From Candidatus Dormiibacterota bacterium (GTDB lineage Bacteria; Chloroflexota; Dormibacteria; Aeolococcales; Aeolococcaceae): a stretch of DNA of 64,000 nucleotides. Both the position numbers and the translations under genes were made by a program. Below are positions 4,995 to 62,988 of the stretch, piece after piece. The DNA lies in the NCBI GenBank assembly GCA_003153505.1, contig PLZA01000065.1, forward strand, positions 29,031 through 93,030, in the 5' to 3' direction. Position 1 is the first letter of the stretch. Each line of letters starts with the position of its first letter. The notes below the pieces were generated by a model, which saw nothing but the letters and a program-made list of their open reading frames with translations, did no database searches and was not told where the DNA came from.

Positions 4995-5675
4995 GTGGTT
5001 GTTCAGCGACGCGGGATCACGGTGGTCGGTGGCGGTGGCGGAGCGCTGGGCGCGGCGGTCGTGACCCGGCTGCTTGCCGCGGGGCGCCAGGTGGTCATCC
5101 CCACACGCCACCCGGGCCGGCTGGCCACGCCGGGGGGCGTGACCGAGCTCGAGTGCGACCTCGACGATGCTGCCGCGGTCGTGCGGCTGCGCGCAGCGGT
5201 CGAAGCGATGGGAGCCTGGGAAGGCGTGGTGAGTGCGTCGGGCGGGTTCGCCGGCGGCCGCGCTCACGAGGTCGACGACGCCGCCATCCAGGAGCAGATC
5301 GCGGCAAATCTCCTTGGCCCCTGGCGTCTCGCTCGAGCTGCGGCGGCCTCGATGGTTTCGAGCGGGGCGGGCGGACGCATCGTGATTGTCGCATCGCGTG
5401 CCGCCGTCGACGTCGCCCGCGGCCAGGCGGCATATCAGGTGACCAAGGCGGCCGTGCTCCGGCTCGCCGAGGTCATGGCGGCAGAGTTGAAGGGGCACGG
5501 GATCACGGTGAACGCCGTCCTTCCCGGGACCATGGATACGCCGGCCAACCGTGAGTCGATGCCCAAGGCAAACCGCTCGTCGTGGGTGAGCACCGACGCG
5601 GTCGCCGCGATCATCGAGTGGCTGCTTTCGGAAGCCGCCGGCGCGGTGACCGGGGCAGCGATCCCCGCCGGGTGA
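4995..5675 (+). CDS. short-chain dehydrogenase/reductase (SDR) family oxidoreductase
   Basis: Rossmann motif VVGGGGGALG, catalytic YxxxK (YQVTKAA) and the NAVLPG motif are present. A GTG at 4995 is chosen so the gene does not overlap the protease stop; the open frame extends back to 4923. Confidence 0.75.
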   Translation: MVVQRRGITVVGGGGGALGAAVVTRLLAAGRQVVIPTRHPGRLATPGGVTELECDLDDAAAVVRLRAAVEAMGAWEGVVSASGGFAGGRAHEVDDAAIQEQIAANLLGPWRLARAAAASMVSSGAGGRIVIVASRAAVDVARGQAAYQVTKAAVLRLAEVMAAELKGHGITVNAVLPGTMDTPANRESMPKANRSSWVSTDAVAAIIEWLLSEAAGAVTGAAIPAG

Positions 5676-5678
5676 CCG

Positions 5679-6287
5679 TCAGCCCATCAACAGCGGCTCG
5701 AATGCTCCCGACTCGCCCAGGCGCGCGATCGCCCGTGCGCGATGGGAGACCCGCTCTTTGGCATCGTCGCTCGCGTTGCCGAAGGTGATCCCGAGATCCA
5801 TCGAGAGGAAGGCGGGGTCGTACCCGAAGCCATTGGTACCGCTCGGCTCGACGAGCGTTCCCAGGCACTCGCCATGGGCGGTCACCGGGTTGGCGCCCGG
5901 CTTGGCCAGCGCGGCGACACAGACGTAGCGCACCCGTCTGTCGTCCGGACTCCGCCGGGCCACCTCGGCGAGCAATCCATGCAGCCGGTCCTGGTCGGTT
6001 GCCGCCTCACCCATCCAGCGCGCCGACATCGGACCCGGCCACCCGTGGAGGGCGTCGACCTCGATCCCGCTGTCGTCGGCGAGCGCGGGCAGACCGGTCG
6101 CCTGGCACACGGCGAGCGCCTTGGCGAGCGCGGATTCCACGTACCCGGGCCCGGGTTCTTCGAGCGGAGCGTCAAAGCCGGCCTCATCCATCGACTTGAG
6201 GTCGAGGGTCCATGGGCTGAGGAGCACACGCAACTCGCGGATCTTTCCCGGGTTGCGTGTGGCCAGGACCAGGACCGAGCGGCTCAC
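5679..6287 (-). CDS. rdgB: non-canonical purine NTP pyrophosphatase (RdgB/HAM1 family)
   Basis: [14 protein letters not shown] and FGYDPAF motifs are present. The GTG start overlaps the rph stop (GTGA). The longer ORF upstream of this start is Arg-rich filler. Confidence 0.85.
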
Positions 6288-7006
6288 CCGGCCGCGCTCA
6301 GCACCTCGGCCTGCAGTGCGAAGAGCTGCTTGAGGCCGGCGTCGGCAAGGCCGAGGAGGGCACCGAGCTCCTCGCGAGAGAACGGCTCCTGCTCGGCGGA
6401 TCCCTGCAGCTCGATGAACCTGCCGTCGAGCGATCCGACACAGTTCATGTCCGTCTCCGCCGCCGAGTCCTCCAGGTAGCACAGGTCGAGACGCGCCTCG
6501 CCCGCCACGATGCCCGCGCTGACTGCGGCAACCGGCCACCGCAGGGGGTCTGAGCGCACGACGCGGGCCTCACGAAGCCGTGCGACCGCGAGCGCGAGCG
6601 CCACGTAGCCGCCGGTGATCGACGCCGTACGGGTCCCACCGTCGGCAACCAGGACGTCGCAGTCGATGAGGATGCTGCGCTCACCGAGCGCCTCGAAGTC
6701 GACAGCGGCACGGAGGCTGCGCCCGATCAGGCGCTGGATCTCCTGAACCCGGCCATCCACGCGGCCCTTGCGGCCGTCGCGCTCGGAGCGCGTCTGGGTG
6801 CTCCTCGGCAGCATCGCGTACTCGGCGGTCACCCAGCCGCGGCCGCTGCCCTTGCGGAACGGCGGCACGCGCTCCTCAACGGACGCGGCACACAGAACCC
6901 TCGTGTCCCCCATGGTGATCAGCGCGCTGCCCTCGGCGTAGGGAAGCGCGTGCAGTTCGATCGAAGTCGGACGGAGTTCATCGGCGGCACGTTGATCTGG
7001 GCGCAT
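6284..7006 (-). CDS. rph: ribonuclease PH
   Basis: [32 protein letters not shown] is a typical RNase PH N-terminus. Length is 240 aa, and rph-rdgB is the conserved gene order. Confidence 0.9.
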
Positions 7007-7035
7007 TGCGCCGAGTGTATCCGCCGGCCCGAAGG

Positions 7036-7755
7036 TCAGCGCCGGAAGACTCGCTGGAGCACGATGATCGACAGCTCATAGAGCAGCAGCAGCGGAATCG
7101 CCAGCAGCGTCGGTGTGAACGGATCCGCTCCTGGCGTGATGACCAGCGCCGCGATGATGATGCCGACGTATGAAATCTTGCGCCAGCCCTTGAGTTTCTT
7201 CGACGAGACGAAGCCGAGCAGTCCGAGCAGCACGATCACGACCGGCATCTCGAAGGTGATCCCGAAGATAAAGATGATGATCAGAAAGAAGCCGATGTAG
7301 TTGTTGAGATCGGGGAAGTAGACGGCGTTGCCGCTGAGGAAGTTGGTAAGGAAGTTGAGGCCGATCGGCATCACGAAGTAGGCGAATACCGCCCCTCCTG
7401 CGAACAGCAGCAGCGCGCTCGCGATGAAGGGCCCGACGAATTTCCGTTCCTTGGGGCGCAGCCCCGGCGAGACGAAGCTCCACGTCTGCCAGAGAATGAC
7501 CGGCAGGGCGAGTATCAGACCGACGACTGCGGAGACCTTCAACGGGACCGTGAGCCCCTCAGTGGGGTTCAGGATGATGGCCTGATCGTGAGGGATGATG
7601 CTGTGCGTGTTGTGGAGGACGGTGTGCAGTGGGTTGAGCAGCAGCCCGATGAAGAACCCGTTGAAGATGAACGCGACGGCCGTTCCAACGATCCACGCGG
7701 CCATCACCCAGATGAGGACGCGTCGCAACTCCTCCAGGTGCTGGACGATCGTCAT
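7036..7755 (-). CDS. tatC: twin-arginine translocase subunit TatC
   Basis: Six-TM protein whose start [14 protein letters not shown] matches the TatC consensus. The ORF could extend to 7788. Confidence 0.85.
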
Positions 7756-7826
7756 CCGCCGTTCGTCGTCGCCAGCCACTCCCTGCACCTTACGTGCCTC
7801 CGGTCAGTGCGCGCCTGTGCGGCGCG

Positions 7827-8123
7827 TCAGCCAGAAACTGACGGCTGGTGTGTCGTCGCGTCGGCCGGGACGGCCACAGGCTCGGCAGGCTGCACGGGCG
7901 CCGGAGCAGGTGCCGCGACGGCCTGAACCACGGGCGCAGGCTGCGCTGGCGTCGTGGTCGTGCCCATCACCGCATCGTGAGTCTCTGACGAAGCCTTCCG
8001 AAACTCGCGAATGCCCTTGCCGATACCAGCGCCCACATCGGGCAGCTTCCCCGGCCCCCAGATGATCAGGATCACCACCAGCACGATGATGATTTCCGGC
8101 AGATGTCCACTTATGAATCCCAT
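7827..8123 (-). CDS. tatA: twin-arginine translocase subunit TatA/E
   Basis: MGFISGHLPEIIIVLVVILIIWGPGKLPDVG is a TatA TM helix plus amphipathic helix. It sits directly upstream of tatC. Confidence 0.85.
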   Translation of the reverse strand: MGFISGHLPEIIIVLVVILIIWGPGKLPDVGAGIGKGIREFRKASSETHDAVMGTTTTPAQPAPVVQAVAAPAPAPVQPAEPVAVPADATTHQPSVSG

Positions 8124-8165
8124 GTCAGCCTCCAGTCTAGCACCATTTTTTTGTTGCCCCTGAGA

Positions 8166-9458
8166 TCAGACTGAGACCGTTGACAGCGTGCGGGCGAACG
8201 ATTCGACCGTCCTGTCCACGTCCTCATCCGAATGCGTCGTCGAGAGAAATGCGGTTTCGAATTGAGACGGCGGCCAGAGCACTCCTGCGTCGAGCCATGC
8301 CTCGTGGAGTCGCCCGAAGCGCTCCCTGTCTGCGAGCTTCACGTCATCGAAGTTGCGCGCCATCTCGATCCCGACGAATGGAGTGACCATGCTGCCGACT
8401 CGGCCCACCGCACATCCGAGCCCCGCAGCCGCAGCAGACTCCTCGAAGCCGGCTTGCAGACGTGCCCCGAGGTCTTCCAGCCGTCGATAGAGCCCGGGAT
8501 CGTGGCGCAGGACGTCCAGCACGGCGATGCCCGCCGCCATCGCCGGAGGGCTGCCCGAGAGCGTCCCCGCCTGGTACACCGGGCCCGACGGCGCGATTCG
8601 CTCCATGAGGTCGCGGCGGCCTCCATAGGCGCCGACGGGAAGCCCGCCGCCGATCACCTTGCCGAACAGGCTCAGATCGGGGCGAATTCCGTAGAGCGCC
8701 TGCGCCCCGCCGTAGGCCACGCGAAATCCAGTCATCACTTCATCGAATACGAGCAAAGCACCCCATTTGGATGTGATGGCGCGAAGTCCGTCCAGAAACC
8801 CGGGCGCGGGGGGAACGCAGCCCATGTTCCCGGCGACCGGTTCGACGATCACCGCGGCGATCTGTTCACCCTTATCTTCGAAGGCCGCGGCCACCGAGTC
8901 GTTATCGTTGTACGGCAGCACGATGGTCCCGGCCACGGCGGCGGACGGGACACCCGGGGACCCGGGGATGCCGAGGGTGGCGACCCCGGAGCCCGCCTCG
9001 GCGAGCAGCGCGTCGGCATGTCCGTGGTAGCCGCCTGCGAACTTGACGATCCGGTCTCTGCCGGTTGCCGCGCGTGCGAGCCGCACCGCGGACATCGCCG
9101 CCTCGGTGCCCGAGGTGACGAAGCGGACCATCTCCACCGATCCCACGGCGTCGACGATCCGCTCCGCGAGCTCGACCTCGAGCTCGACGGTATGACCGTA
9201 GGCGATCCCCCGGTCGAGCTGGGCCCGGATGGCGGTGATCACCTCGGGCGGCTGATGCCCGAGGATGTGGGGGCCGTATGCGAGGACGAAGTCGATGAAC
9301 TCGTTGCCATCGGCGTCAACCACGTGCGCTCCCTCGCCACGAACGATGTGGGGCGGCACTCCTGGCACCGCACGGTAGGCACGCACAGGGCTGTCAACTC
9401 CGCCCGGCAGCACGCGCTCGGCGCGCTCGCGCAGCGCCCGAGCGTTGCTGTCGCGCAT
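8166..9458 (-). CDS. hemL: glutamate-1-semialdehyde 2,1-aminomutase
   Basis: Class-III aminotransferase fold with the GSA-aminomutase N-terminus (RAYRAVPGVPPHIVRGEGAHVVDADGNEFIDF). It lies inside the heme cluster. Confidence 0.9.
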   Translation of the reverse strand: MRDSNARALRERAERVLPGGVDSPVRAYRAVPGVPPHIVRGEGAHVVDADGNEFIDFVLAYGPHILGHQPPEVITAIRAQLDRGIAYGHTVELEVELAERIVDAVGSVEMVRFVTSGTEAAMSAVRLARAATGRDRIVKFAGGYHGHADALLAEAGSGVATLGIPGSPGVPSAAVAGTIVLPYNDNDSVAAAFEDKGEQIAAVIVEPVAGNMGCVPPAPGFLDGLRAITSKWGALLVFDEVMTGFRVAYGGAQALYGIRPDLSLFGKVIGGGLPVGAYGGRRDLMERIAPSGPVYQAGTLSGSPPAMAAGIAVLDVLRHDPGLYRRLEDLGARLQAGFEESAAAAGLGCAVGRVGSMVTPFVGIEMARNFDDVKLADRERFGRLHEAWLDAGVLWPPSQFETAFLSTTHSDEDVDRTVESFARTLSTVSV

Positions 9459-9464
9459 GGCGGC

Positions 9465-10247
9465 TTAGGTCTGCTGCCGAACGGTGATCGACTTCATCAG
9501 ATCGCCTTGTTTGATCACCACGGCGACGGGCAGTCCCGTCTCGACCTTGCCGAAGAGGTTGTACGACGGCGGGAGCTGTGTCGAGTCCTCGGTGCAGATG
9601 AAGAATTGGGAGCCGTTGGTGTTGGCGCCGCTGTTCGCCATCGCAACGGCACCCGCGACGTATTGCTGATGCACGGGCTCGTCGTTGAATTGGAACCCCG
9701 GACCTCCGCCACCGCACGTCCCGGAGGGTGTCGCCGGCGGAGCTGGGACGTTGCCGATGCACTGCGGGTCGCCACCCTGGATGACGAAGATCCCACTGGA
9801 TACGACGCGGTGGAATGGGATGCCGTCGTAGAAGTGATTGCGTGCCAGCGTCACGAACATGTTCACCGTGTTTGGCGCGAGATCCGGCTGCAGGCACATG
9901 ACGATGTTGCCCTTGGCGGTGGCGATCGTCGCCTGGTACAGCTTGGTGGTGTCGATGGTCATGGCCGGTGCGGCGCTGTAGGTGTGCACGCTGGCGGGTG
10001 GGTTGATCGGCGCAAGCACCGGGCCGAACGTGGTCGTCGCACAGTCGGCGAAGGGAATCGTGGCGGCCGCAGTTGGAGAGGGTGTCGGCGTGGGCGTCGG
10101 CGCGACCGCCGTGGGAGTCGTCAGCGCCGGCAGCGGTGCGCTGGCGCTGTTCACGCCGATGGCGATGGCCACGATGGCCACCACCACGACGGCCCCTGAC
10201 CCGAGCACCAGCGGAAGGCGACGCCGGTCGCCGGACGAGTCACTCAT
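9465..10247 (-). CDS. membrane-anchored cyclophilin-type peptidyl-prolyl cis-trans isomerase
   Basis: N-terminal TM, a PT-rich linker and a cyclophilin core (FHRVVSSGIFVIQGGDP, GSQFFICT) are present. Confidence 0.8.
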   Translation of the reverse strand: MSDSSGDRRRLPLVLGSGAVVVVAIVAIAIGVNSASAPLPALTTPTAVAPTPTPTPSPTAAATIPFADCATTTFGPVLAPINPPASVHTYSAAPAMTIDTTKLYQATIATAKGNIVMCLQPDLAPNTVNMFVTLARNHFYDGIPFHRVVSSGIFVIQGGDPQCIGNVPAPPATPSGTCGGGGPGFQFNDEPVHQQYVAGAVAMANSGANTNGSQFFICTEDSTQLPPSYNLFGKVETGLPVAVVIKQGDLMKSITVRQQT

Positions 10248-10251
10248 CGAT

Positions 10252-11241
10252 TCACTCCTTGGTCTCCGCGAGCCAGCCCGCGGCGGCGCGCGCGTGGTAC
10301 GTGATGATCATGTCGGCACCCGCGCGGCGGATGCCACCCAGGGCTTCAAGGACGGCGGCACGTTCGTCGAAGGCACCCGCCGAGGCCGCGTGATGGAGCA
10401 TGGCAAACTCCCCGCTGACGCAGTAGGCGGCGAGGGGCAGATCGGTCGCGTCGCGAACCCGGGCGACGACATCGAGGTAGGTGAGCGCGGGCTTCACCAT
10501 GACCATGTCCGCGCCCTCCTCGACATCGAGGAGGGCTTCGCGAACAGCCTCACGCTGATTGGCCGGGTTCATCTGGTACGAACGCCGGTCTCCCGTCCTC
10601 GGCGCGCATTCAGCGGCGTCCCGGAAGGGACCGTAGAGCACGGTCGCGAACTTCGCGCTGTACCCGAGGATCGCGGTGTCGGTGAATCCCGACATGTCCA
10701 GCGCCTCGCGGATCGCGGCGACCTGCCCGTCCATCATCCCGCTCGGCGCGATGATGTCGGCTCCGGCTGCAGCCTGGCTGACCGCGGTCCGAGCGTACAG
10801 CTCCAGGGTCGCGTCGTTGTCGACGTCGCCGTTCTCGAGGAGGAAGCCACAGTGCCCGTGGTCCGTGTACTCGCAGAGGCAGCAGTCGGCGATCACGACG
10901 CATGCATCGCCGAAGCGATCGTGGACGGCGCGGATTGCCTGCTGGACCACCCCGTCGTCGGCGAAGGCGCCCGATCCCTGTGCATCCTTATGAGCGGGGA
11001 GACCGAAGAGGAGCACGCCGCCGAGGCCGAGGTCGATCGTCTCCTCCACGGTCGCGCACAGGGAATCGATGCTTTCGTGTTGCTGCCCGGTCATCGACCT
11101 GATCTCCTCGGGCGATGCAAGCCCCTCTCGGATGAAGGCTGGGTGGATCAACTGCCCGGCTGTCAGCCGTGACTCGCGGGCGAGGCGGCGCAACGCAGGT
11201 GTCCGGCGCAGACGTCGGGGTCGCTCGAGGGGAAAGCCCAT
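10252..11241 (-). CDS. hemB: porphobilinogen synthase (delta-aminolevulinate dehydratase)
   Basis: MGFPLERPRRLRRTPALRRL start and active-site Lys region are present. Start is set at the internal ATG (11241); the ORF upstream of it is R-rich filler. Confidence 0.9.
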   Translation of the reverse strand: MGFPLERPRRLRRTPALRRLARESRLTAGQLIHPAFIREGLASPEEIRSMTGQQHESIDSLCATVEETIDLGLGGVLLFGLPAHKDAQGSGAFADDGVVQQAIRAVHDRFGDACVVIADCCLCEYTDHGHCGFLLENGDVDNDATLELYARTAVSQAAAGADIIAPSGMMDGQVAAIREALDMSGFTDTAILGYSAKFATVLYGPFRDAAECAPRTGDRRSYQMNPANQREAVREALLDVEEGADMVMVKPALTYLDVVARVRDATDLPLAAYCVSGEFAMLHHAASAGAFDERAAVLEALGGIRRAGADMIITYHARAAAGWLAETKE

Positions 11242-11249
11242 ATCGCCGT

Positions 11250-12032
11250 TCAGCGTAGCGGCTGGGGGGTGAGGGACTCGGTGAGCGCGGCGACGAGACC
11301 TTCGACTGAGGCCACTTTGGCGATGGCTCGGACATCGAGACCGGCGCTTCGCGCCTCGTCCGCGGTCTGCGCTCCGATACACACGATCGCGACGCCGGCC
11401 GGCAGTCCCCGCGCGCCTGCGGCCCTGACGAGATTGCGCACGGTGCTGCCGCTGGTGAGGGTGATCGCGTCAACTCCGGCGTCGAGGGCGGCGCGCACGC
11501 GCTCCGGAGCCGACGCGGGCATGACGCTCCTGTAGATGTGCTGGACGGTGACCGAAGCGCCCGCGGCGCTGACCACTTCGACAAACCCACCGCGCGTCCC
11601 CTCTGCGACGGGAAACCACACGGTGGCACCGTCAAGCCCTCGCTGCTGCAGCGCCGCCGCAAGCCCGGCCGCGTCGTGGTCGCCGGCCACGAGATCCGCG
11701 AGCACTCCGTGCGCCTCGAGAGCGGCGGCGGTCGCCGGACCAACGGCCGCGACGAGCATTCCGGACAGCGCAGCTGCTCCAGCCGCTCCGATGACGAGAC
11801 GCACGGATGTTGCGCTCGTAAAGGCGACCCATCGCGGCGCGGGCGCATCCGCGACCACGGCGGCGATCCGAACGATGGCGTCCGGGGCTGCGATCGGCAT
11901 GGTGGTGATCAGAGGGACCACGGTCACCACCGCACCGTCGGCGTGGAGCCGGTCGACCAGTCCCTCGGCCTGCTCGCGGGTCCGGGTCACGAGCACCCGA
12001 CGCCCGGCCAGGGGCTGCACCGGGCCGGTCAC
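11250..12032 (-). CDS. hemD: uroporphyrinogen-III synthase
   Basis: HemD-like sequence (RRVLVTRTREQAEGL) in the correct position between hemC and hemB. Its ATG overlaps the hemC stop (ATGA). Confidence 0.8.
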   Translation of the reverse strand: MTGPVQPLAGRRVLVTRTREQAEGLVDRLHADGAVVTVVPLITTMPIAAPDAIVRIAAVVADAPAPRWVAFTSATSVRLVIGAAGAAALSGMLVAAVGPATAAALEAHGVLADLVAGDHDAAGLAAALQQRGLDGATVWFPVAEGTRGGFVEVVSAAGASVTVQHIYRSVMPASAPERVRAALDAGVDAITLTSGSTVRNLVRAAGARGLPAGVAIVCIGAQTADEARSAGLDVRAIAKVASVEGLVAALTESLTPQPLR

Positions 12033-12913
12033 CGCAAGCGCGCAGCGACCATCTCGCCGAGCGCCTCCGGTTCGTCAGGGCTCCCCGTCGCCCCGGCTCG
12101 GCGTATTGCCCCGTCGACCGCCAGCGCTGCGACGAGCGTGAGTTGGTGCTCGTGGATCCGAGCCCACGCCCCGAGGGGCAGCAGGCATCCCCCGCCGAGG
12201 CCGAGGAGCACCGCCCGCTCGGCGGTGACCGCGACTCTCGTGGCGGCATCGCCGATCAGCGCGCACACCGTCGTTGCCCGCGAAGCGGCGACGGTCTCGA
12301 GTGCGATGGCGCCCTGCGCCGGAGCCGGGACGAACAGCAAGGGGTCGAGGCGCTCCACGAGGCGATCGCCGAGTGAGAGCCGGTCCAGCCCGGCACACGC
12401 GAGGACCAACGCATCCACATCGCCGGCGTCGAGCTTGCGCAGGCGTGTGTCCACGTTGCCGCGAATCGGCACCGCTCGCAGGCCTGGATACAGGACTGCG
12501 AGGAGCCCCGCCCTGCGTGCGCTGCTGGTTCCGACCGTCGCACCGTCGGGGAGCTGATCAAGGGATCGCCCGTCTGCGGTCACGACGCCGTCCCGCGCAT
12601 CAGCGCGGGCGAGGTAGGCGGCAATGACCAGGCCTGGGGCAAGCGCTGACGGCAGGTCCTTGGCGCTGTGCACGGCAATGTCGGCGCGGCCGTCGACGAT
12701 GCTCCGCTCGAGATCTGCGGTGAACCAGCCCTGCCCATCGAGCTGATCGATCGGGGCATTGACGCGCCGGTCGCCCTCGGTCCTCACGACGATCGTCTCG
12801 GGGTCGGCACCGCCGGCGCTTCTCAGTGCGTCAGCCGCGAGTGCGGCCTGTCGGAGCGCCAGCGCGCTCCCGCGGGTCGCCAGGCGCAGGGTGGTGGTGT
12901 CCGCGGCCGGCAT
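12029..12913 (-). CDS. hemC: hydroxymethylbilane synthase (porphobilinogen deaminase)
   Basis: LRLATRGSALALRQA N-terminus and a dipyrromethane cofactor region are present. Confidence 0.9.
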   Translation of the reverse strand: MPAADTTTLRLATRGSALALRQAALAADALRSAGGADPETIVVRTEGDRRVNAPIDQLDGQGWFTADLERSIVDGRADIAVHSAKDLPSALAPGLVIAAYLARADARDGVVTADGRSLDQLPDGATVGTSSARRAGLLAVLYPGLRAVPIRGNVDTRLRKLDAGDVDALVLACAGLDRLSLGDRLVERLDPLLFVPAPAQGAIALETVAASRATTVCALIGDAATRVAVTAERAVLLGLGGGCLLPLGAWARIHEHQLTLVAALAVDGAIRRAGATGSPDEPEALGEMVAARLR

Positions 12914-55212: not shown

Positions 55213-56313
55213 ATGGTTGTTGAGGCGGCGATCCGCTCCGCGGCGCTGCCCGACGGCCGAGCCGCCTGGCCAGTTCCGACGCCAGTCGCGATCGAAGGGC
55301 TCGGAACGGCGGTTCCACCCCATGACGTCGGCGGCGACGAGGTCCTTCGCCTGCTCACGCAACTCTGGCCGCGGCTCCAGCGTCGTGTGAGCCTCTTCGC
55401 CGACGAGCTTTCAGACACGCGCCGCTTCCTCGTCCGCCCGATCGAGGAGGCCCTGGTGCCGCTGAGCCCAGGGGCGCAGGCAGTTCGCTATGCGGCCGAT
55501 GCGACCGCGCTCGCGATCGCCGCAGCGGAGCGAGCGATCCTCGACGCTGGGACCGCGGTCGGTGACCTCGGGCTCATCGTCGTGTCGTCGTGCACCGGGT
55601 TCGTGCTCCCCGGGGTGGATGTGCAGCTGGTCAATCACCTCGGCCTCCGTCGCGATATCAGGCGTATGCCGTTTATGAACTTCGGCTGCGCAGGCGGCGC
55701 TGCGGCGCTGGCGTGGGCGTCTGATTGGGCTCGCTCGCATCCCGAGGAGTCGGCCCTGGTGGTTGCCGTCGAGGTGCCGTCGCTGACCTTCCGGCCGGCG
55801 GACACCTCGGCCGACAACCTCCTGAGCGTGCTCGTGTTCGGCGACGGTGCCGGGGCGGCGGTGCTTCGTGGGGGAACCGTCCTCGGACGCATCGGCATCG
55901 GCAGGACCGGTCATCATCTGGTGCGGTCGAGCACCGAAGCGCTCGGCTTCGAGCGGTCCGATGACGGGTTCCGCGTCGTTGTCTCCCGCCAGCTCCCCCG
56001 GCTGCTCGAGGCTCACCTTCCCGCACTGGTCGACGACTTCATCGGTCAAGCGTCCGATCTCGACGTGATCGCGCTCCATCCGGGGGGACAGGCGATCGTC
56101 GAAGCGGTCACGCGTTGCCTCGGACTCACAGACTCGCAGGTGGCGGCGACGCGCCGGGTGATGAGCAGCGTCGGCAACACCTCGTCTGCAGCAATCCTGT
56201 TCGTGCTCGAGGATCTGGCGACGCACCTCCCCTCCCCCGAGGGCCACGGCCTCGGCGCTGCCTTCGGCCCCGGGCTCATGGTCGAGCTCATCGAGCTGCT
56301 CTGGGCGTCATGA
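55213..56313 (+). CDS. type III polyketide synthase (chalcone/stilbene synthase superfamily)
   Basis: Catalytic Cys (VVSSCTGFVLPG), His/Asn regions and a C-terminal GFGPG-like motif (AAFGPGLMVE) are present. A GTG start at ~55285 is also possible. Confidence 0.85.
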   Translation: MVVEAAIRSAALPDGRAAWPVPTPVAIEGLGTAVPPHDVGGDEVLRLLTQLWPRLQRRVSLFADELSDTRRFLVRPIEEALVPLSPGAQAVRYAADATALAIAAAERAILDAGTAVGDLGLIVVSSCTGFVLPGVDVQLVNHLGLRRDIRRMPFMNFGCAGGAAALAWASDWARSHPEESALVVAVEVPSLTFRPADTSADNLLSVLVFGDGAGAAVLRGGTVLGRIGIGRTGHHLVRSSTEALGFERSDDGFRVVVSRQLPRLLEAHLPALVDDFIGQASDLDVIALHPGGQAIVEAVTRCLGLTDSQVAATRRVMSSVGNTSSAAILFVLEDLATHLPSPEGHGLGAAFGPGLMVELIELLWAS

Positions 56314-56927
56314 AGGGGCGGGCGCGAAGCGCCCTCGTGCTCGCGGCCGCGGCGCAGCGGCTCGTCGAGCTGCGGATCTCGAAGCGCAACCGCGTTGCAC
56401 TGGGCCGCGCCGAGCAGGCGTCCCCCTCGACCTACCCGGCCATGGTCGCCGTGCATGTCCTGCTCTTCGCGGTCAGCCTCTGGCCGCGCGCTGGCCGCAG
56501 GGTTTCGCGCCCGGTGGAAATCGTCGCCCTGGCGGGCCTCGGTGCGTCAGCCGGCCTGCGGCTGTGGGTCATTCGAACGCTGGGGACGACCTGGAACGTG
56601 ACGGCTCACGTGGCGCCTGAAGGGCACATCGAGACTGGGGGTCCCTATCGCTTCGTGCGCCATCCGAATTACGTCGCCGTGGCGCTGGAGTTCGCCTGCC
56701 TGCCCACGGCGGTCGGCGCCGTTCCAGAGGCGCTGGTGCTCTCGCTCGCCAACGCCGCGGTGCTCGCGCCGCGCATCCGAGCCGAGGAGCGCCTGCTCGA
56801 CGCGATCCCCGGATATCGCGAGGCGTTCCAGGACGTCCCCCGTTTCATCCCGCGCCGGATGTCCCGGAGCCGTCAGATCCCCGCCAGCAACAACCACTCG
56901 CGCGCCGTGACGTCGCGAAAGGTCTGA
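56310..56927 (+). CDS. isoprenylcysteine carboxyl methyltransferase (ICMT)-family membrane methyltransferase
   Basis: ICMT signature (YRFVRHPNYVAVALEF) on a TM protein. Its ATG overlaps the PKS stop (ATGA). Confidence 0.75.
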   Translation: MKGRARSALVLAAAAQRLVELRISKRNRVALGRAEQASPSTYPAMVAVHVLLFAVSLWPRAGRRVSRPVEIVALAGLGASAGLRLWVIRTLGTTWNVTAHVAPEGHIETGGPYRFVRHPNYVAVALEFACLPTAVGAVPEALVLSLANAAVLAPRIRAEERLLDAIPGYREAFQDVPRFIPRRMSRSRQIPASNNHSRAVTSRKV

Positions 56928-58051
56928 TATCCGCAGTTGATCGCGACGAGCTTGCCCAGTGCGCGCGGATCGCGTCCCGCTCGTTCGATGGCTCGCCGGC
57001 TGAGCCGCGGCGACTGTGCCAGGAAGAGCGCGAGTTGGGTGACGCGCCGCCGTTCGCGCACCACGCGTTCGTGGTCGATCGTGTAGCGAGTTGCGGCATC
57101 AGCGCGGGACGTCCGGCCGCCGAGGAAATCGACGAGGTGCTCCGCGACGCGTTCGGCAAGGAGCATCCCCACCGCGATGCCATCCCCCGTCGTCGGGTCG
57201 TCGTACCCGGATGCGTCACCGACAAGAAAGACGCGACCGTCCCCGGGCGTGCGCACCCGCTGATGGAACGACGCCGCGCCGAGCGGTCCTGACACCAGGT
57301 CGGAGTCGCGGAGGCTCGGGACCTCTCGACGCGCGACGCTCGCGTAGTCCCGCGCGCGCATCGGCTGGGCTCGGCCGGTGAGAATCGACACCAGCAGCAG
57401 GCCCGGTCCGACGGGAGCCTCGTACCACTCGTGACCGCGGGCGAGGGTCACCGTGACGGCGTCCCGTCCGCTTTCCTCGACGCGCCAATGGCCGGCGAGC
57501 CCGTAGCGAAGCCGCGCGTTTGATGGCGCCCTCAGCCCGGCCCAGGCACGGACCTGGGAGTGCAGACCGTCGGCACCGACGACGATGCGCGCCTGGATCG
57601 CCTCAGCCGTGGTGCTCACGCCGATCACGCTGCCCGCCCGATCGCGGATCAGCCCGGTGACTCGTTCGGCCTCCCGGACGGTGGCACGGGGCTCTCGGCG
57701 TACGGCGTCGACGAGCACGGCGTCGAAGCTGGTGCGGCGAACGCCAAGCCCGGCCGCCGGCCCGCCGTCCGGCGGGGCGGGGAACGGTACGTGGACCCTC
57801 GGCCCGGGCCCGGGCTGACGGTAGGTCACTCCCCGGATCGGCTGTGCACCGGTGGCCAGGACGGGGTCATACAGTCGCATTTTTCGGAGTACCGCCACAC
57901 CTGGGGGCATGACCCCTTCGCCGCATGCCTTGTCGCGCGGAAAGCGCGCGCGATCGACGAGCACCACGTCGTGACCGCTCCTCGCGATGAGGAGCGCGGT
58001 TGTTGCCCCGCTTGGGCCCGCGCCCACCACCACGACCTCGGTCTCGGTCAC
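56873..58051 (-). CDS. FAD-dependent monooxygenase/oxidoreductase (geranylgeranyl-reductase-like)
   Basis: Dinucleotide-binding motif VVVVGAGPSGATTALLIARSGHDVVLVDR is present. GTG start. The 3' end overlaps the convergent ICMT gene by 55 bp. Confidence 0.75.
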   Translation of the reverse strand: MTETEVVVVGAGPSGATTALLIARSGHDVVLVDRARFPRDKACGEGVMPPGVAVLRKMRLYDPVLATGAQPIRGVTYRQPGPGPRVHVPFPAPPDGGPAAGLGVRRTSFDAVLVDAVRREPRATVREAERVTGLIRDRAGSVIGVSTTAEAIQARIVVGADGLHSQVRAWAGLRAPSNARLRYGLAGHWRVEESGRDAVTVTLARGHEWYEAPVGPGLLLVSILTGRAQPMRARDYASVARREVPSLRDSDLVSGPLGAASFHQRVRTPGDGRVFLVGDASGYDDPTTGDGIAVGMLLAERVAEHLVDFLGGRTSRADAATRYTIDHERVVRERRRVTQLALFLAQSPRLSRRAIERAGRDPRALGKLVAINCGYQTFRDVTAREWLLLAGI

Positions 58052-58133
58052 GCAGGGACTGTCGCAGAACGACGTCGCAATGGGCGTTCGGCAGCGGACC
58101 GCATGCGACGGACCCCGGGTGGATGATGCATCC

Positions 58134-59366
58134 GTGAACTTCCTCTCGGGACTGCATGGCGCCGTCGCCCTGGCCCTGCTCCCAGCGCTGCTGTTCGCGG
58201 AGGAGGCAGGGGTCCCACTGCCGTTCGCCCCGGGGGAGCTGACCCTGCTGGTCGCGGGCCTGCTAATCGCCTCGGGTGGCCTCAATCCCTATGCCTTCAT
58301 CCCGCTCTCATTGGTCGCCTGCATTGCCGGGTCGCTGGTCGGATACAGCTGGGCCCGTGCCGTCGGCGACCGTGGTCTCAAGGGGCTCGCCCGCCGTCTT
58401 CGCCAGCAGCGCAACCTCGAGCGGGTCGAGGAGCGGCTTCGTGCCGCCGGATGGAGAGGCATCGCCATCAGCCGGCTGATTCCCGGCCTGCGCATCTACA
58501 CCACGCTGGTCGCCGGAGCCGTGCGAGCTCCGCGACGGTCATTCGTCCTCGCCATGGTCTCGTCGACGGTGGTCTGGGTCGGGGTCTACGTAGCTCTGGG
58601 AATCCTCATCGGCGTGCCGGTGGAGCACTTCCTCGATCAGCTTCAGAAGCTCGCCGTCCAGGGCGCCATCCTCATCGTGATGGGTGTCGGCTGCTACCTG
58701 GCGGTGCGCAAGACTCCGTCGTCATCCGGAGCCGGCCTCGTCCGGGTGCCCCGCTGGGTTCGAGTCGTCCTGGCCGCTCTGGTCGACATCGGCGTCGTCG
58801 CGAGCATCGTCACCGGGCTGCTCGCGCTCGGCCGCCTGCTCGGGGTCGGTTTCGGCAGCGGCTGGGTGGACGGGGTCGTCGTCCTCCTCGTCGTGGGAGC
58901 GTTCTACGTGATCGTCGCCAGGCGGAGCGCCGGGGCGACCGCCGGCGAGGTGTTGCTCCAGACGAGCTACATCAGCGGTCACGGCCTGCCGCTCAAACCC
59001 CGCGCCGCGCTCGAGGCGGTCCGCTCCCTGGTGACCAGGTCGGACGACGAGCTGACCGCCACCGGTGACCTCCTCCACGCCCTGGGCGATCCCGACCGGC
59101 TGCGGATCGTGACCCAGCTGCTGGACCGACCGCGGACGCTCGACGAGCTCGCCTCGCGCTCGAATCTCTCGGCCTTCGAGATCAGGCATCAGCTGGATCG
59201 ATTCCGGTCGAGCGGCGTCCTCGTGATCAGCGGACAGGAACCGGATGCGACCTACGCGATCCGCGCCGATCTGGGCCACGTGCTCGTACAGCTGCTGGCC
59301 ATCGTGGAGGCGACAACTGCCTCAACCGCGGCGCAGGAGGCCGCGCCCAAGCCGGCGCAGGTATAG
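58134..59366 (+). CDS. DedA (VTT-domain) membrane protein fused to a C-terminal ArsR/SmtB-type winged-HTH
   Basis: N-terminal DedA core (LPFAPGELTLLVAGLLIASG..ISRLIPGLRIYTTLVAG), extra TM helices, then an ArsR-type HTH. Start could be the ATG at 58080. Confidence 0.7.
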   Translation: MNFLSGLHGAVALALLPALLFAEEAGVPLPFAPGELTLLVAGLLIASGGLNPYAFIPLSLVACIAGSLVGYSWARAVGDRGLKGLARRLRQQRNLERVEERLRAAGWRGIAISRLIPGLRIYTTLVAGAVRAPRRSFVLAMVSSTVVWVGVYVALGILIGVPVEHFLDQLQKLAVQGAILIVMGVGCYLAVRKTPSSSGAGLVRVPRWVRVVLAALVDIGVVASIVTGLLALGRLLGVGFGSGWVDGVVVLLVVGAFYVIVARRSAGATAGEVLLQTSYISGHGLPLKPRAALEAVRSLVTRSDDELTATGDLLHALGDPDRLRIVTQLLDRPRTLDELASRSNLSAFEIRHQLDRFRSSGVLVISGQEPDATYAIRADLGHVLVQLLAIVEATTASTAAQEAAPKPAQV

Positions 59367-61374: not shown

Positions 61375-62988
61375 GTGGTCATTCCCGCCGGCGTCGGGAT
61401 CACGGCCGGAGTGGTGATCAGCCGTGTGCTCCCGCGGCCAGATGGATTCGGCGCGGCCGCGCTGTCGTTTGCAGCCGTGAGCCTGGTGATGCTCGTGACG
61501 ATCATCGCGCTCGAGCGCGCCGGTCGTCGTCTCCTGCCGCTCGCCGCACTGCTCAACCTGTCGTTGCTCTTTCCGGATCGAGCGCCCAAGCGATTCGCGG
61601 TCGCTCGCCGGGTCGGGAAGCCACGCGACCTGCAGCGCCGGCTCCAGGAGGCGCGCGACAAAGGAGTGACGGGTGGCGAGGTGGCGCACATGCAGACGGT
61701 GCTGGAACTCGTTGCGGCGCTGAGCGTGCACGACCGCCAGACGCGTGGACACTCCGAGCGAGTGCGCGTGTTTGCGGACCTCATCGCTGACGAGATGAAG
61801 CTCGCCCCCGGTGATCGCGCCCGTCTCCGCTGGGCCTCCCTGCTCCACGACATCGGCAAATTGGTGGTCCCTGCCGAGATTCTGTCGAAGCCGGCGAAGC
61901 TCAGCCACGCCGAGATGGAGAACGTCCGCCGCCATCCCGATGAAGGCGCTCGGCTCATCGGGCCCCTGAGCGCATGGCTCGGCGAATGGGCAGGCGCGGT
62001 GCCCCACCACCACGAACGCTTCGATGGTCGCGGCTATCCGCGCGGTCTCGCAGGCGACCAGATCTCGCTTGCCGGTCGCATCGTCGCGGTCGCCGACTCG
62101 TACGAGGTCATGACTGCGATGCGCCCATATCGCAAGCCGGTCAGCGTGTCCGCAGCGCGGCAGGAGCTGGTCGAGTGTTCAGGAGCGCAGTTCGATCCCA
62201 TCGTGGTTCGCGCGTTTCTCAACATCTCCATGGGCCGCCTGTGGCGCGTCGTCGGTCTTGGTTCGTGGATCGCGCAACTGCCGCTGATCGGCTGGGTCGA
62301 TCGCCTGGGATGGAACTGGGGGGCTGCGATCATGTCGGGCACGACTGCGCTCGGCCTGACAGCGCCGGGTCTGATCCCGAGCGCCCCGCCGTCCGCAAGC
62401 CCGACCTTCGGCATTTCGGTCGTCTCGAGCGGCGGTACAACTGCGCGGACAAACCCTGGATTGGGTGCCGGCGCACCGGATGGCACCACGGGGAGTGCAC
62501 CGTCAGGGCAGACCACGACGACGCGTCCCGCGGGGGGAACCACGGGACAGTCCGGAGGCAGTCCGGGTGGCGGTGGTGCGCCCGCCTCAACCCCGCCGTC
62601 ACCTGCCCCGTCACTGTCGCCTCCGACGCCGGGTTCCACCCCCATAACGCCGACGCCGTCCCCGACTCCACCGCCAACAGCGACGCCCACGCCGCCTCCC
62701 GATCTTCCACCGGTCGTGACCGTCAACCCGGGCGGCCTCGTCGCGCTCGGTCTCTACAGGAACGGCTCGGGAGGCTTTACGGACGCCGACTTCGCCGGCC
62801 ACACGTTCACCGCGACGGTGAACTACGGCGACGGGAGCCCGACGGTGCCGCTCGCGTTGAGTGGGGCGACCTTCGTCCTGGCGCATAACTACAGCACCAT
62901 CCTCGCGACATACACCGTGACCGTCACGGTCACCGACAACGACGGTGTGTCAGGTACCGGGACGACCACTGTGACCGTGATCTTCTAG
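61375..62988 (+). CDS. membrane-anchored HD-GYP phosphohydrolase with C-terminal PT-rich linker and PKD-like domain
   Basis: Two N-terminal TM helices, an HD motif (LLHDIGK) and a GYP motif (HHERFDGRGYPRG). Further hydrophobic segments precede a Pro/Thr/Ser linker and a PKD signature. Confidence 0.8.
   Translation: MVIPAGVGITAGVVISRVLPRPDGFGAAALSFAAVSLVMLVTIIALERAGRRLLPLAALLNLSLLFPDRAPKRFAVARRVGKPRDLQRRLQEARDKGVTGGEVAHMQTVLELVAALSVHDRQTRGHSERVRVFADLIADEMKLAPGDRARLRWASLLHDIGKLVVPAEILSKPAKLSHAEMENVRRHPDEGARLIGPLSAWLGEWAGAVPHHHERFDGRGYPRGLAGDQISLAGRIVAVADSYEVMTAMRPYRKPVSVSAARQELVECSGAQFDPIVVRAFLNISMGRLWRVVGLGSWIAQLPLIGWVDRLGWNWGAAIMSGTTALGLTAPGLIPSAPPSASPTFGISVVSSGGTTARTNPGLGAGAPDGTTGSAPSGQTTTTRPAGGTTGQSGGSPGGGGAPASTPPSPAPSLSPPTPGSTPITPTPSPTPPPTATPTPPPDLPPVVTVNPGGLVALGLYRNGSGGFTDADFAGHTFTATVNYGDGSPTVPLALSGATFVLAHNYSTILATYTVTVTVTDNDGVSGTGTTTVTVIF

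Follow-up and report, generated by a model that had tools for sequence, protein, structure and literature searches.

The gene described here lies in a stretch of 64,000 nucleotides from a Candidatus Dormiibacterota bacterium (GenBank assembly GCA_003153505.1, contig PLZA01000065.1, positions 29,031 to 93,030 of the forward strand), which is called the window in the following and whose own numbering is used throughout. On the plus strand of the window, an open reading frame (ORF) at 58134-59366 starts with a GTG at 58134, comprises 410 codons and ends with the stop codon at 59364-59366. According to the ORF list and its translation, the encoded protein of 410 aa is a fusion of a DedA-type membrane core, an RDD-like hairpin and a C-terminal winged helix-turn-helix (wHTH) domain of the ArsR fold. 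The original prediction, made from the sequence alone, had described a DedA domain followed by additional transmembrane helices and an ArsR-type domain, which together would constitute a membrane-tethered one-component transcription factor. The fusion gene is monocistronic in the window, since its upstream neighbour, an FAD_binding_3 monooxygenase gene at 56873-58051 on the minus strand, is divergent and the downstream gene for a PHO4/PitA phosphate transporter, which is accompanied by a PhoU_div gene, is convergent and lies 9 bp past the stop codon of the fusion.

The longest possible ORF would begin with an ATG at 57987 and would overlap the divergent monooxygenase gene. Because the N-termini of the homologues (MNFLQGLHG...) align to 58134, and because the GTG five codons 5' of this position is not an in-frame start in some relatives, 58134 is the best-supported start. 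Public gene calls differ at this point: one cluster representative (P0001, 459 aa) has the ATG at 57987 as its start, which makes it overlap the monooxygenase gene, and the call of a second representative (P0007) begins at the GTG 15 nt upstream of 58134.

Residues 1-192 (58134-58709, plus strand) comprise the DedA/VTT transporter core, as determined by Pfam, NCBIfam, a BLASTP alignment to E. coli YghB and an AlphaFold2 (AF2) model. The Pfam VTT model (PF09335) matched residues 33-157 (58230-58604) with an E-value of 8e-18 and 65.5 bits compared to a cut-off of 33.9, so that the canonical core of the original prediction was borne out, and it was found in all 112 aligned family members. The best NCBIfam matches were DedA and UptA models, with the DedA model spanning residues 9-192, while the equivalog level was not reached (60.8 vs 236 bits for PRK10847, 35.6 vs 300 and 24 vs 250 bits for the UptA models). 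The residues E23, E35, R114 and R120 align to E39, D51, R130 and R136 of YghB and are invariant in 111-112 of the 112 relatives. In YghB, these positions are defining and essential residues of the COG0586 subfamily, whose members are proposed to act as undecaprenyl-phosphate flippases driven by the proton-motive force (PMC10127716). In the AF2 model, the predicted local distance difference test score (pLDDT) of the core was mostly 75-94, and breaks rich in proline and glycine at 25-33 and 116-119 are followed by short helices (34-46 and 120-129) at the places expected for the two re-entrant loops, as judged from AF2 secondary structure and hydropathy. A Foldseek search matched no solved structure to the membrane part.

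Altogether, the core is of the COG0586 type, with the acidic pair and the basic pair on which undecaprenyl-phosphate flippases depend both retained. Like the DedA/UptA-type proteins of this group (YghB and YqjA of E. coli, UptA of B. subtilis), the fusion possesses a VTT core and the equivalents of the acidic and basic pairs, which in YghB lie on the first and the second re-entrant helix, respectively. Unlike YghB, to which it shows an identity of only 26%, it carries ~220 extra C-terminal residues comprising the hairpin and the wHTH. Judged from these residues, the DedA part is probably still an active transporter; a flippase activity of the fusion we only infer, because the scores of the UptA models lie far under the equivalog cut-offs.

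A basic cytoplasmic loop (RKTPSSSGAGLVRV..., 58710-58751, plus strand) joins the fourth transmembrane helix of DedA to the following hairpin. According to the charge counts, the loop at residues 192-210 contains a family mean of 5.0 K+R and 0 D+E, and its mean pairwise identity amounts to 0.81. The hairpin itself (residues 207-279, 58752-58970, plus strand) was recognised from a weak Pfam match, hydropathy and residue conservation. It comprises two transmembrane helices at 211-235 and 245-262, which correspond to the additional helices claimed before, followed by a conserved RRSxGATxGExLLQTSY segment, and the AF2 model of the protein (mean pLDDT 74.7) likewise shows two more long helices after the DedA core. 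Among the 112 relatives, D246 is kept in 110, and R210, D218 and E272 are invariant. The Pfam RDD model (PF06271) matched residues 207-299 with an E-value of 1.5e-3 and 19.3 bits, under the cut-off of 24.1, covering positions 4-100 of 137, which equals its first two-thirds, and it was matched in 22 of the 112 relatives at E<0.01.

As in the RDD family, an invariant arginine precedes the first helix, an invariant aspartate lies inside, and a conserved G-x-T-x-G-E...TSY follows the second helix. The third transmembrane segment and the last aspartate of the family are absent from the hairpin, as seen from the Pfam alignment and the comparison with the literature. This distinguishes it from the RDD protein of Halobacillus andaensis, which was reported to be a Na+(Li+,K+)/H+ antiporter needing D154 for antiport (PMC5996927); the fusion has no aspartate equivalent to D154. 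Furthermore, the hairpin reached a pLDDT of 51-62 in an AF2 model of the C-terminal part alone. On the basis of these sequence features, the additional helices are a partial RDD-like hairpin.

A linker of ~40 residues ties the ArsR/SmtB-fold domain to the membrane part. The segment annotated as linker, residues 280-303 (58971-59042, plus strand), comprises a low-confidence stretch at 279-289 with a pLDDT below 50 and then a short helix at 289-300. Regarding the topology, the family-mean K+R amounts to 8.8 for the loop at 75-110, 5.0 for that at 192-210 and 6.5 for that at 263-303, compared to 0.4 for the loop at 161-171 and 0.1 for that at 236-244. Because basic loops alternate with non-basic loops, the wHTH is predicted to sit in the cytoplasm by the positive-inside rule, which answers the question of its location raised by the original prediction.

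The ArsR/SmtB-fold winged helix covers residues 304-395 (59043-59318, plus strand) and comprises alpha1 (304-316), alpha2 (320-331), alpha3 (336-342), the recognition helix alphaR (347-359, 59172-59210), a beta-wing (363-376) and alpha5 (378-403), while the residues 396-410 (59319-59363, plus strand) belong to an unconserved C-terminal tail with a pairwise identity of 0.18 and a pLDDT below 50. For the window protein alone, the Pfam model HTH_5 matched residues 319-361 with an E-value of 3e-4 and 21.0 bits, just under the cut-off of 22; HTH_20 reached an E-value of 2.8e-3 (18 vs 27 bits) and the NCBIfam model HTH_metalloreg 26.5 vs 55 bits. A CmtR-type NCBIfam model aligned almost completely (model positions 7-101 of 104) to residues 306-399. 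Across the family, HTH_5 was found in 91 and HTH_20 in 81 of the 112 relatives at E<0.01, and a distant member (P0129) exceeded the curated cut-offs with 34.7 bits for HTH_5 and 28.6 bits for HTH_20.

When 1.84 billion representative proteins were searched with a profile built from the last 215 residues, 4619 of them matched at E<=1e-3. The best 150 of these were mostly 100-140 aa long and aligned to the wHTH part, and the two that were scanned proved to be of the ArsR type; about a dozen clusters of full-length relatives were retrieved as well. Three long matches of the profile (P0242, P0257 and P0205) were discarded as relatives, since they matched only wHTH Pfam models and their N-terminal regions are hydrophilic by eye; judging from this, they appear to be unrelated soluble ArsR fusions. 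The AF2 model shows the canonical order alpha1-alpha2-alpha3-alphaR-beta1-beta2-alpha5, and Foldseek against solved structures returned SmtB, CzrA, NolR and HlyU with target TM-scores of 0.7-0.78. In terms of the predicted model, the wHTH is thus a complete ArsR/SmtB fold, and the ArsR-type domain of the original prediction is confirmed by the family matches and the modelled fold. Like the repressors SmtB, CzrA, CmtR, NolR and HlyU, it keeps the alpha2 motif DPxRLRI and the His-x-Leu of alphaR.

The attribution of a metal- or stress-responsive function to this fold did not hold. There is no cysteine in residues 290-410, and no alpha3N or alpha5 metal ligands were found in the wHTH by hand alignment to the SmtB sequence. 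In this alignment, alpha3 reads PRTLDEL opposite to ELCVGDL of SmtB; H382 is not conserved. In this respect, as in its covalent anchoring to six or more membrane segments, the fusion is unlike the ArsR/SmtB repressors.

The first search for homologues returned 474 proteins, the best 120 of which were mostly 394-435 aa long with identities of 60-99%, and several of them carry the Joint Genome Institute name "DedA.../DNA-binding transcriptional ArsR family regulator". Scanning one genome per GTDB species yielded 159 relatives. With few exceptions, the 80 loci that were retrieved stem from metagenome-assembled genomes (MAGs) of Candidatus Dormibacteria/Dormiibacterota, whole-chromosome assemblies among them, and the host organisms are known solely from MAGs. 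Split versions of the fusion were not found among the homologues, and the short "stand-alone" matches turned out to be fragments. One of them, a putative stand-alone RDD-wHTH protein of 211 aa (P0135), is a truncated gene call, because it starts 50 nt from a contig end, and full-length or "partial" proteins are found in the two clusters considered as stand-alone versions (clusters 7 and 8).

An uninterrupted ORF of 380-440 codons was present in 80 of 85 related loci, which according to record titles and contig names span whole-chromosome, megahit-style (k127/k141) and SPAdes-style (NODE_) assemblies. An assembly or frameshift error joining adjacent DedA and ArsR genes, which the original prediction had named as a possible refutation, is rejected by these comparative data and retains a practically negligible probability: the same ORF recurs in many independent assemblies, the intervening hairpin and linker are themselves conserved, all modules are under purifying selection (see below), and no evidence in support of such an artefact was found. 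The fusion gene is genuine, encodes an inner-membrane protein and occurs almost only in genomes labelled Dormibacteria, an uncultured class of soil bacteria. With regard to its architecture, topology and conservation as described, there is hardly any doubt.

A complete DedA + RDD-like protein of 289 aa without a wHTH is encoded at 5001-5870 of a locus (L088) whose contig is labelled Candidatus Binatia. Because such a protein exists, the membrane pair occurs outside Dormibacteria too and can be regarded as a unit to which the wHTH was added in Dormibacteria.

The ratio of nonsynonymous to synonymous substitutions (dN/dS) amounted to ~0.18 for DedA, ~0.20 for the RDD-like hairpin, ~0.33 for the linker and ~0.39 for the wHTH, values which are rough because dS is near saturation. 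Estimated in this way, all modules including the wHTH are under purifying selection, the wHTH more weakly than the membrane modules. The most conserved elements of the wHTH are alpha2 (DPxRLRI) and the recognition helix (FE[VI]RHQLDRL), and the least conserved are the wing and alpha3. Several MAGs contain two paralogues (L020/L049, L023/L038, L047/L060, L069/L070, L065/L076 and L068/L071). Within these pairs, the DedA parts show identities of 75-89%, compared to 53-58% for the wHTH in five of the six pairs and 75% in L047/L060. By analogy, this divergence resembles that of the specificity domains of duplicated regulators, which behave in this way.

The architecture corresponds to the published definition of transmembrane transcription regulators, namely a DNA-binding-type domain and at least one transmembrane region in one polypeptide (PMC10269533). 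The census of this class lists 50,302 regulators, of which 635 contain HTH_20, 165 HTH_5, 15 RDD and 2 SNARE_assoc (as DedA was formerly called in Pfam), and 27% have three or more transmembrane regions (PMC10269533). As in ToxR, CadC, TcpP and BcrR, a cytoplasmic DNA-binding-type domain and transmembrane segments are combined in one chain. Unlike in ToxR-type regulators, the membrane part is a transporter-family domain instead of a simple anchor with a periplasmic sensor, and the wHTH is C-terminal. A membrane-anchored one-component DNA-binding regulator is the single most likely mechanism for the fusion, although we propose it tentatively and at somewhat less than an even chance. The conservation of alpha2 and alphaR and the normal charge of the latter support it.

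In such a regulator, which would work as a transmembrane one-component system, two protomers would pair via the ArsR alpha1/alpha5 interface, and at the membrane, the conserved surface of the recognition helix (F348, E349, H352, L354 and R356, together with R322 and R377) would bind a target nucleic acid. This binding would be altered by the state of the DedA/RDD part, either its load of lipid carrier or the proton-motive force, which would be relayed via the invariant RRSxGATxGExLLQTSY segment and the linker. Because there are no metal-sensing sites in the protein, the membrane module is the only candidate for the input. A more specific form of this proposal is a transceptor, in which the transport cycle of the flippase (substrate occupancy or proton-motive force) directly gates DNA binding by the attached ArsR dimer; this form we consider unlikely. 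If it were true, envelope gene expression in Dormibacteria would be tied to lipid-carrier recycling by a single protein, and the winged helices of the paralogues, having diverged, would address different targets.

Several observations weigh against a DNA-binding regulator, and the first of them concern the charge of the wHTH. Its net charge is negative in each of the 112 members, with a mean of -4.5 and a range of -12 to -1, whereas whole stand-alone ArsR-like matches have a mean charge of +2.6 with 29% of them negative, and +1.8 in the aligned region; this places the wHTH of the fusion within the lowest 1% of the stand-alone comparators. For the window protein, the whole wHTH (304-395) has a charge of -6 compared to a stand-alone mean of +1.8, alpha1-alpha2 of -5 compared to +0.6 and the wing of -1 compared to +1.5, while alphaR with +1 lies close to the mean of +1.5. 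The wing carries G-E/D-E-P-D at the place of the basic RKQGR of SmtB, and in alphaR the common [VI]SHHL is replaced by [VI]RHQL followed by an acidic residue. Furthermore, the wHTH evolves at ~2x the rate of the membrane modules, and the locus on the contig labelled Candidatus Binatia demonstrates that it is dispensable to the membrane unit.

Alternatively, the protein could be a DedA-type lipid-carrier flippase first, whose ArsR fold does not bind DNA and was co-opted for dimerisation or regulation in the cytoplasm. The wHTH could clamp two protomers via alpha1/alpha5, or its acidic surface could dock on the basic loops as an autoinhibitory plug. In line with this explanation, the wHTH of every member is acidic, as are its wing and alpha1-alpha2, the cytoplasmic loops contain ~20 K+R, the leucines of alpha1 and alpha5 (L313, L317, L380, L384 and L388) are conserved, the DedA transport residues are invariant, and DedA cores were reported to be likely homodimers with C-terminal dimerisation helices (PMC10127716). 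On the other hand, alphaR is among the two most conserved elements of the wHTH and has a charge normal for the ArsR family, neither of which would be needed for pure dimerisation; the 29% of negative stand-alone comparators show that a net negative charge is not peculiar to the fusion, and the more rapid divergence of this domain in the paralogue pairs points, like the conserved and normally charged helix, to DNA or another specific ligand. Almost every ArsR/SmtB-fold protein characterised to date is known to bind DNA. Taken together, the co-opted module is the main competing explanation and quite conceivable, although we lean against it.

The regulatory DNA adds to the points against DNA binding. 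The intergenic region of 82 bp (58052-58133) lies between the start of the FAD-monooxygenase gene (58051, minus strand) and the fusion gene. A palindromic ArsR-type operator, which the original prediction had suggested to look for at 58051-58134, was not found: the stretch 58052-58133 is free of inverted repeats of 8 nt or longer. Two palindromes noticed by eye, CGCATGCG and GGATG-ATG-CATCC, are not conserved in relatives and were dismissed as operators. Among 80 distinct upstream sequences, 41 contained inverted repeats compared to 36 +/- 4.5 in shuffles, which corresponds to chance, and the sole recurrent half-site of an inverted repeat in these sequences falls in the coding sequence of ftsK. 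A scan of the region for consensus promoters and terminators and an Rfam scan gave nothing useful.

Only two blocks of the 82 bp are conserved in ~35 clade-A loci (clades are described below), namely ACTSTCGCAGAA at 58058-58069 and a GGATGAT resembling a ribosome-binding site at 58121-58127. The 12-mer ACTSTCGCAGAA is unlikely to be an ArsR operator because it is asymmetric; it occurs once per locus in clade A only, 6-9 nt from the start of the FAD-monooxygenase gene, and is exact in 25 clade-A loci despite strong divergence at synonymous sites. Read from the minus strand, the block is TTCTGCGA(C/G)AGT with an A at position 2 and a T at position 6, which looks like a TGn-extended -10 box for a leaderless mRNA or one with a very short leader.

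The gene neighbourhood is not conserved across the clades of the family and provides no link to a regulon. In clade A, which includes the window and shows identities of 79-96% to its protein, a type III polyketide synthase (PKS), an ICMT methyltransferase and the FAD monooxygenase are located upstream and divergent, and Pit/PhoU_div is found downstream in about half of the loci. In clade B (59-63%), the order is ftsK - (metallophosphoesterase) - fusion - yajQ - pgsA - cinA - recA - recX, as found at 5237-12802 of locus L005 and in 16 other loci. Within this housekeeping cluster, the fusion gene of L005 shares 4 bp with its upstream neighbour and so lacks a separate promoter that it could autoregulate, which is a further point against a DNA-binding regulator. 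The lack of an operator, the changing genomic context and the placement in a housekeeping cluster speak for an ArsR fold co-opted within a flippase. In clade C (65-69%), the neighbours are unrelated. The loci L042-L079 of this clade possess their own -10-like box (TAC[GC]CT, within the conserved CCGG(T)GTAC[GC]CTG) ~30-70 nt upstream of the fusion start, then a GC-rich hairpin that varies between subgroups (CCCGCCGGTGCCGGCGGG in L079) and a GGAG site within CAGA(T)CGGAG. Judged by their arrangement, these elements are probably a promoter and a stem-loop in the 5' untranslated region, and the hairpin is an unlikely target of the conserved recognition helix because its sequence varies.

As synteny is confined to one clade, the neighbours in the window say little about the function. 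The PKS-cluster monooxygenase and the phosphate-uptake genes emphasised by the original prediction are indeed present, but they are conserved in clade A only, and Pit in about half of it, so that they do not constitute functional evidence; that the PKS cluster or the Pit operon is functionally tied to the fusion across the family was rejected. Apart from the fusion, the type III PKS, the ICMT-family methyltransferase and the FAD monooxygenase (55213-58051) form a conserved trio in ~33 related genomes, which presumably resembles alkylresorcinol/alkylquinone clusters such as srsABC of Streptomyces. The genes for the ICMT-type methyltransferase (plus strand) and the FAD monooxygenase (minus strand) share 55 nt at their 3' ends (56873-56927), an overlap repeated in a related locus (L001, 6754-6808). 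Further downstream, an HD_5 (HD-GYP-type) protein at 61375-62988 comprises N-terminal hydrophobic segments, a long linker rich in Pro, Thr and Gly and a beta-rich C-terminal tail, and it occurs downstream in 28 related loci.

The linker allows for another kind of regulator, in which the wHTH would be inactive at the membrane and freed by proteolysis in the 279-289 linker or the last transmembrane helix under envelope stress. The freed wHTH would be a soluble ArsR-type dimer, and the fusion would be a covalent counterpart of the sequestration of SdpR by SdpI in B. subtilis. This would be consistent with the flexible, less conserved linker of low model confidence and with the precedent of an ArsR-family repressor sequestered at a polytopic membrane protein (PMC2910880). 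What both systems have in common is a functional coupling between an ArsR-type domain and the cytoplasmic side of a polytopic membrane protein (PMC2910880); unlike the fusion, SdpI and SdpR are separate polypeptides from one operon, and SdpI is unrelated to DedA. A weak NCBIfam match to the SdpR subfamily (E=0.036) was obtained, which with 14 vs 100 bits lies far under the cut-off. Since furthermore no protease gene is consistently linked at the loci, no cleavage motif was identified and the same doubts about DNA binding apply as for the anchored regulator, a release by proteolysis is considered improbable.

Altogether, the membrane-tethered transcription factor of the original prediction stands with respect to its architecture and the predicted cytoplasmic position of the wHTH, while the acidic wHTH and the missing operator argue against its DNA-binding part. 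Each component of the fusion and the general class of transmembrane transcription regulators are already known, and automatic annotation labels some members with both domains. In the literature, no paper describing a fusion of DedA and a helix-turn-helix domain was found, the only trace being the count of two in the census table (PMC10269533). The published survey of the COG0586 subfamily, in which 93% of the members are single-domain, names rhodanese and PAP2 fusions alone, and DedA-wHTH is absent from these named fusions (PMC10127716).

Undecaprenyl phosphate is an essential lipid carrier whose recycling was linked to DedA proteins only recently (PMC10127716), and no report on how cells sense or regulate this recycling step was found in the literature. 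Because the lineage is uncultured, the immediate impact of the finding is modest. Since PAP2 and rhodanese fusions already served as functional clues for the DedA family, a class-wide and selectively maintained fusion of a flippase-type DedA protein with a transcription factor fold would provide a handle for asking whether DedA proteins act as sensors. If the fusion is a regulator, a transporter-type input module would join the catalogue of transmembrane transcription regulators. If its wHTH does not bind DNA, the family would clearly exemplify how an ArsR fold can be put to new use in the assembly or regulation of a membrane protein.

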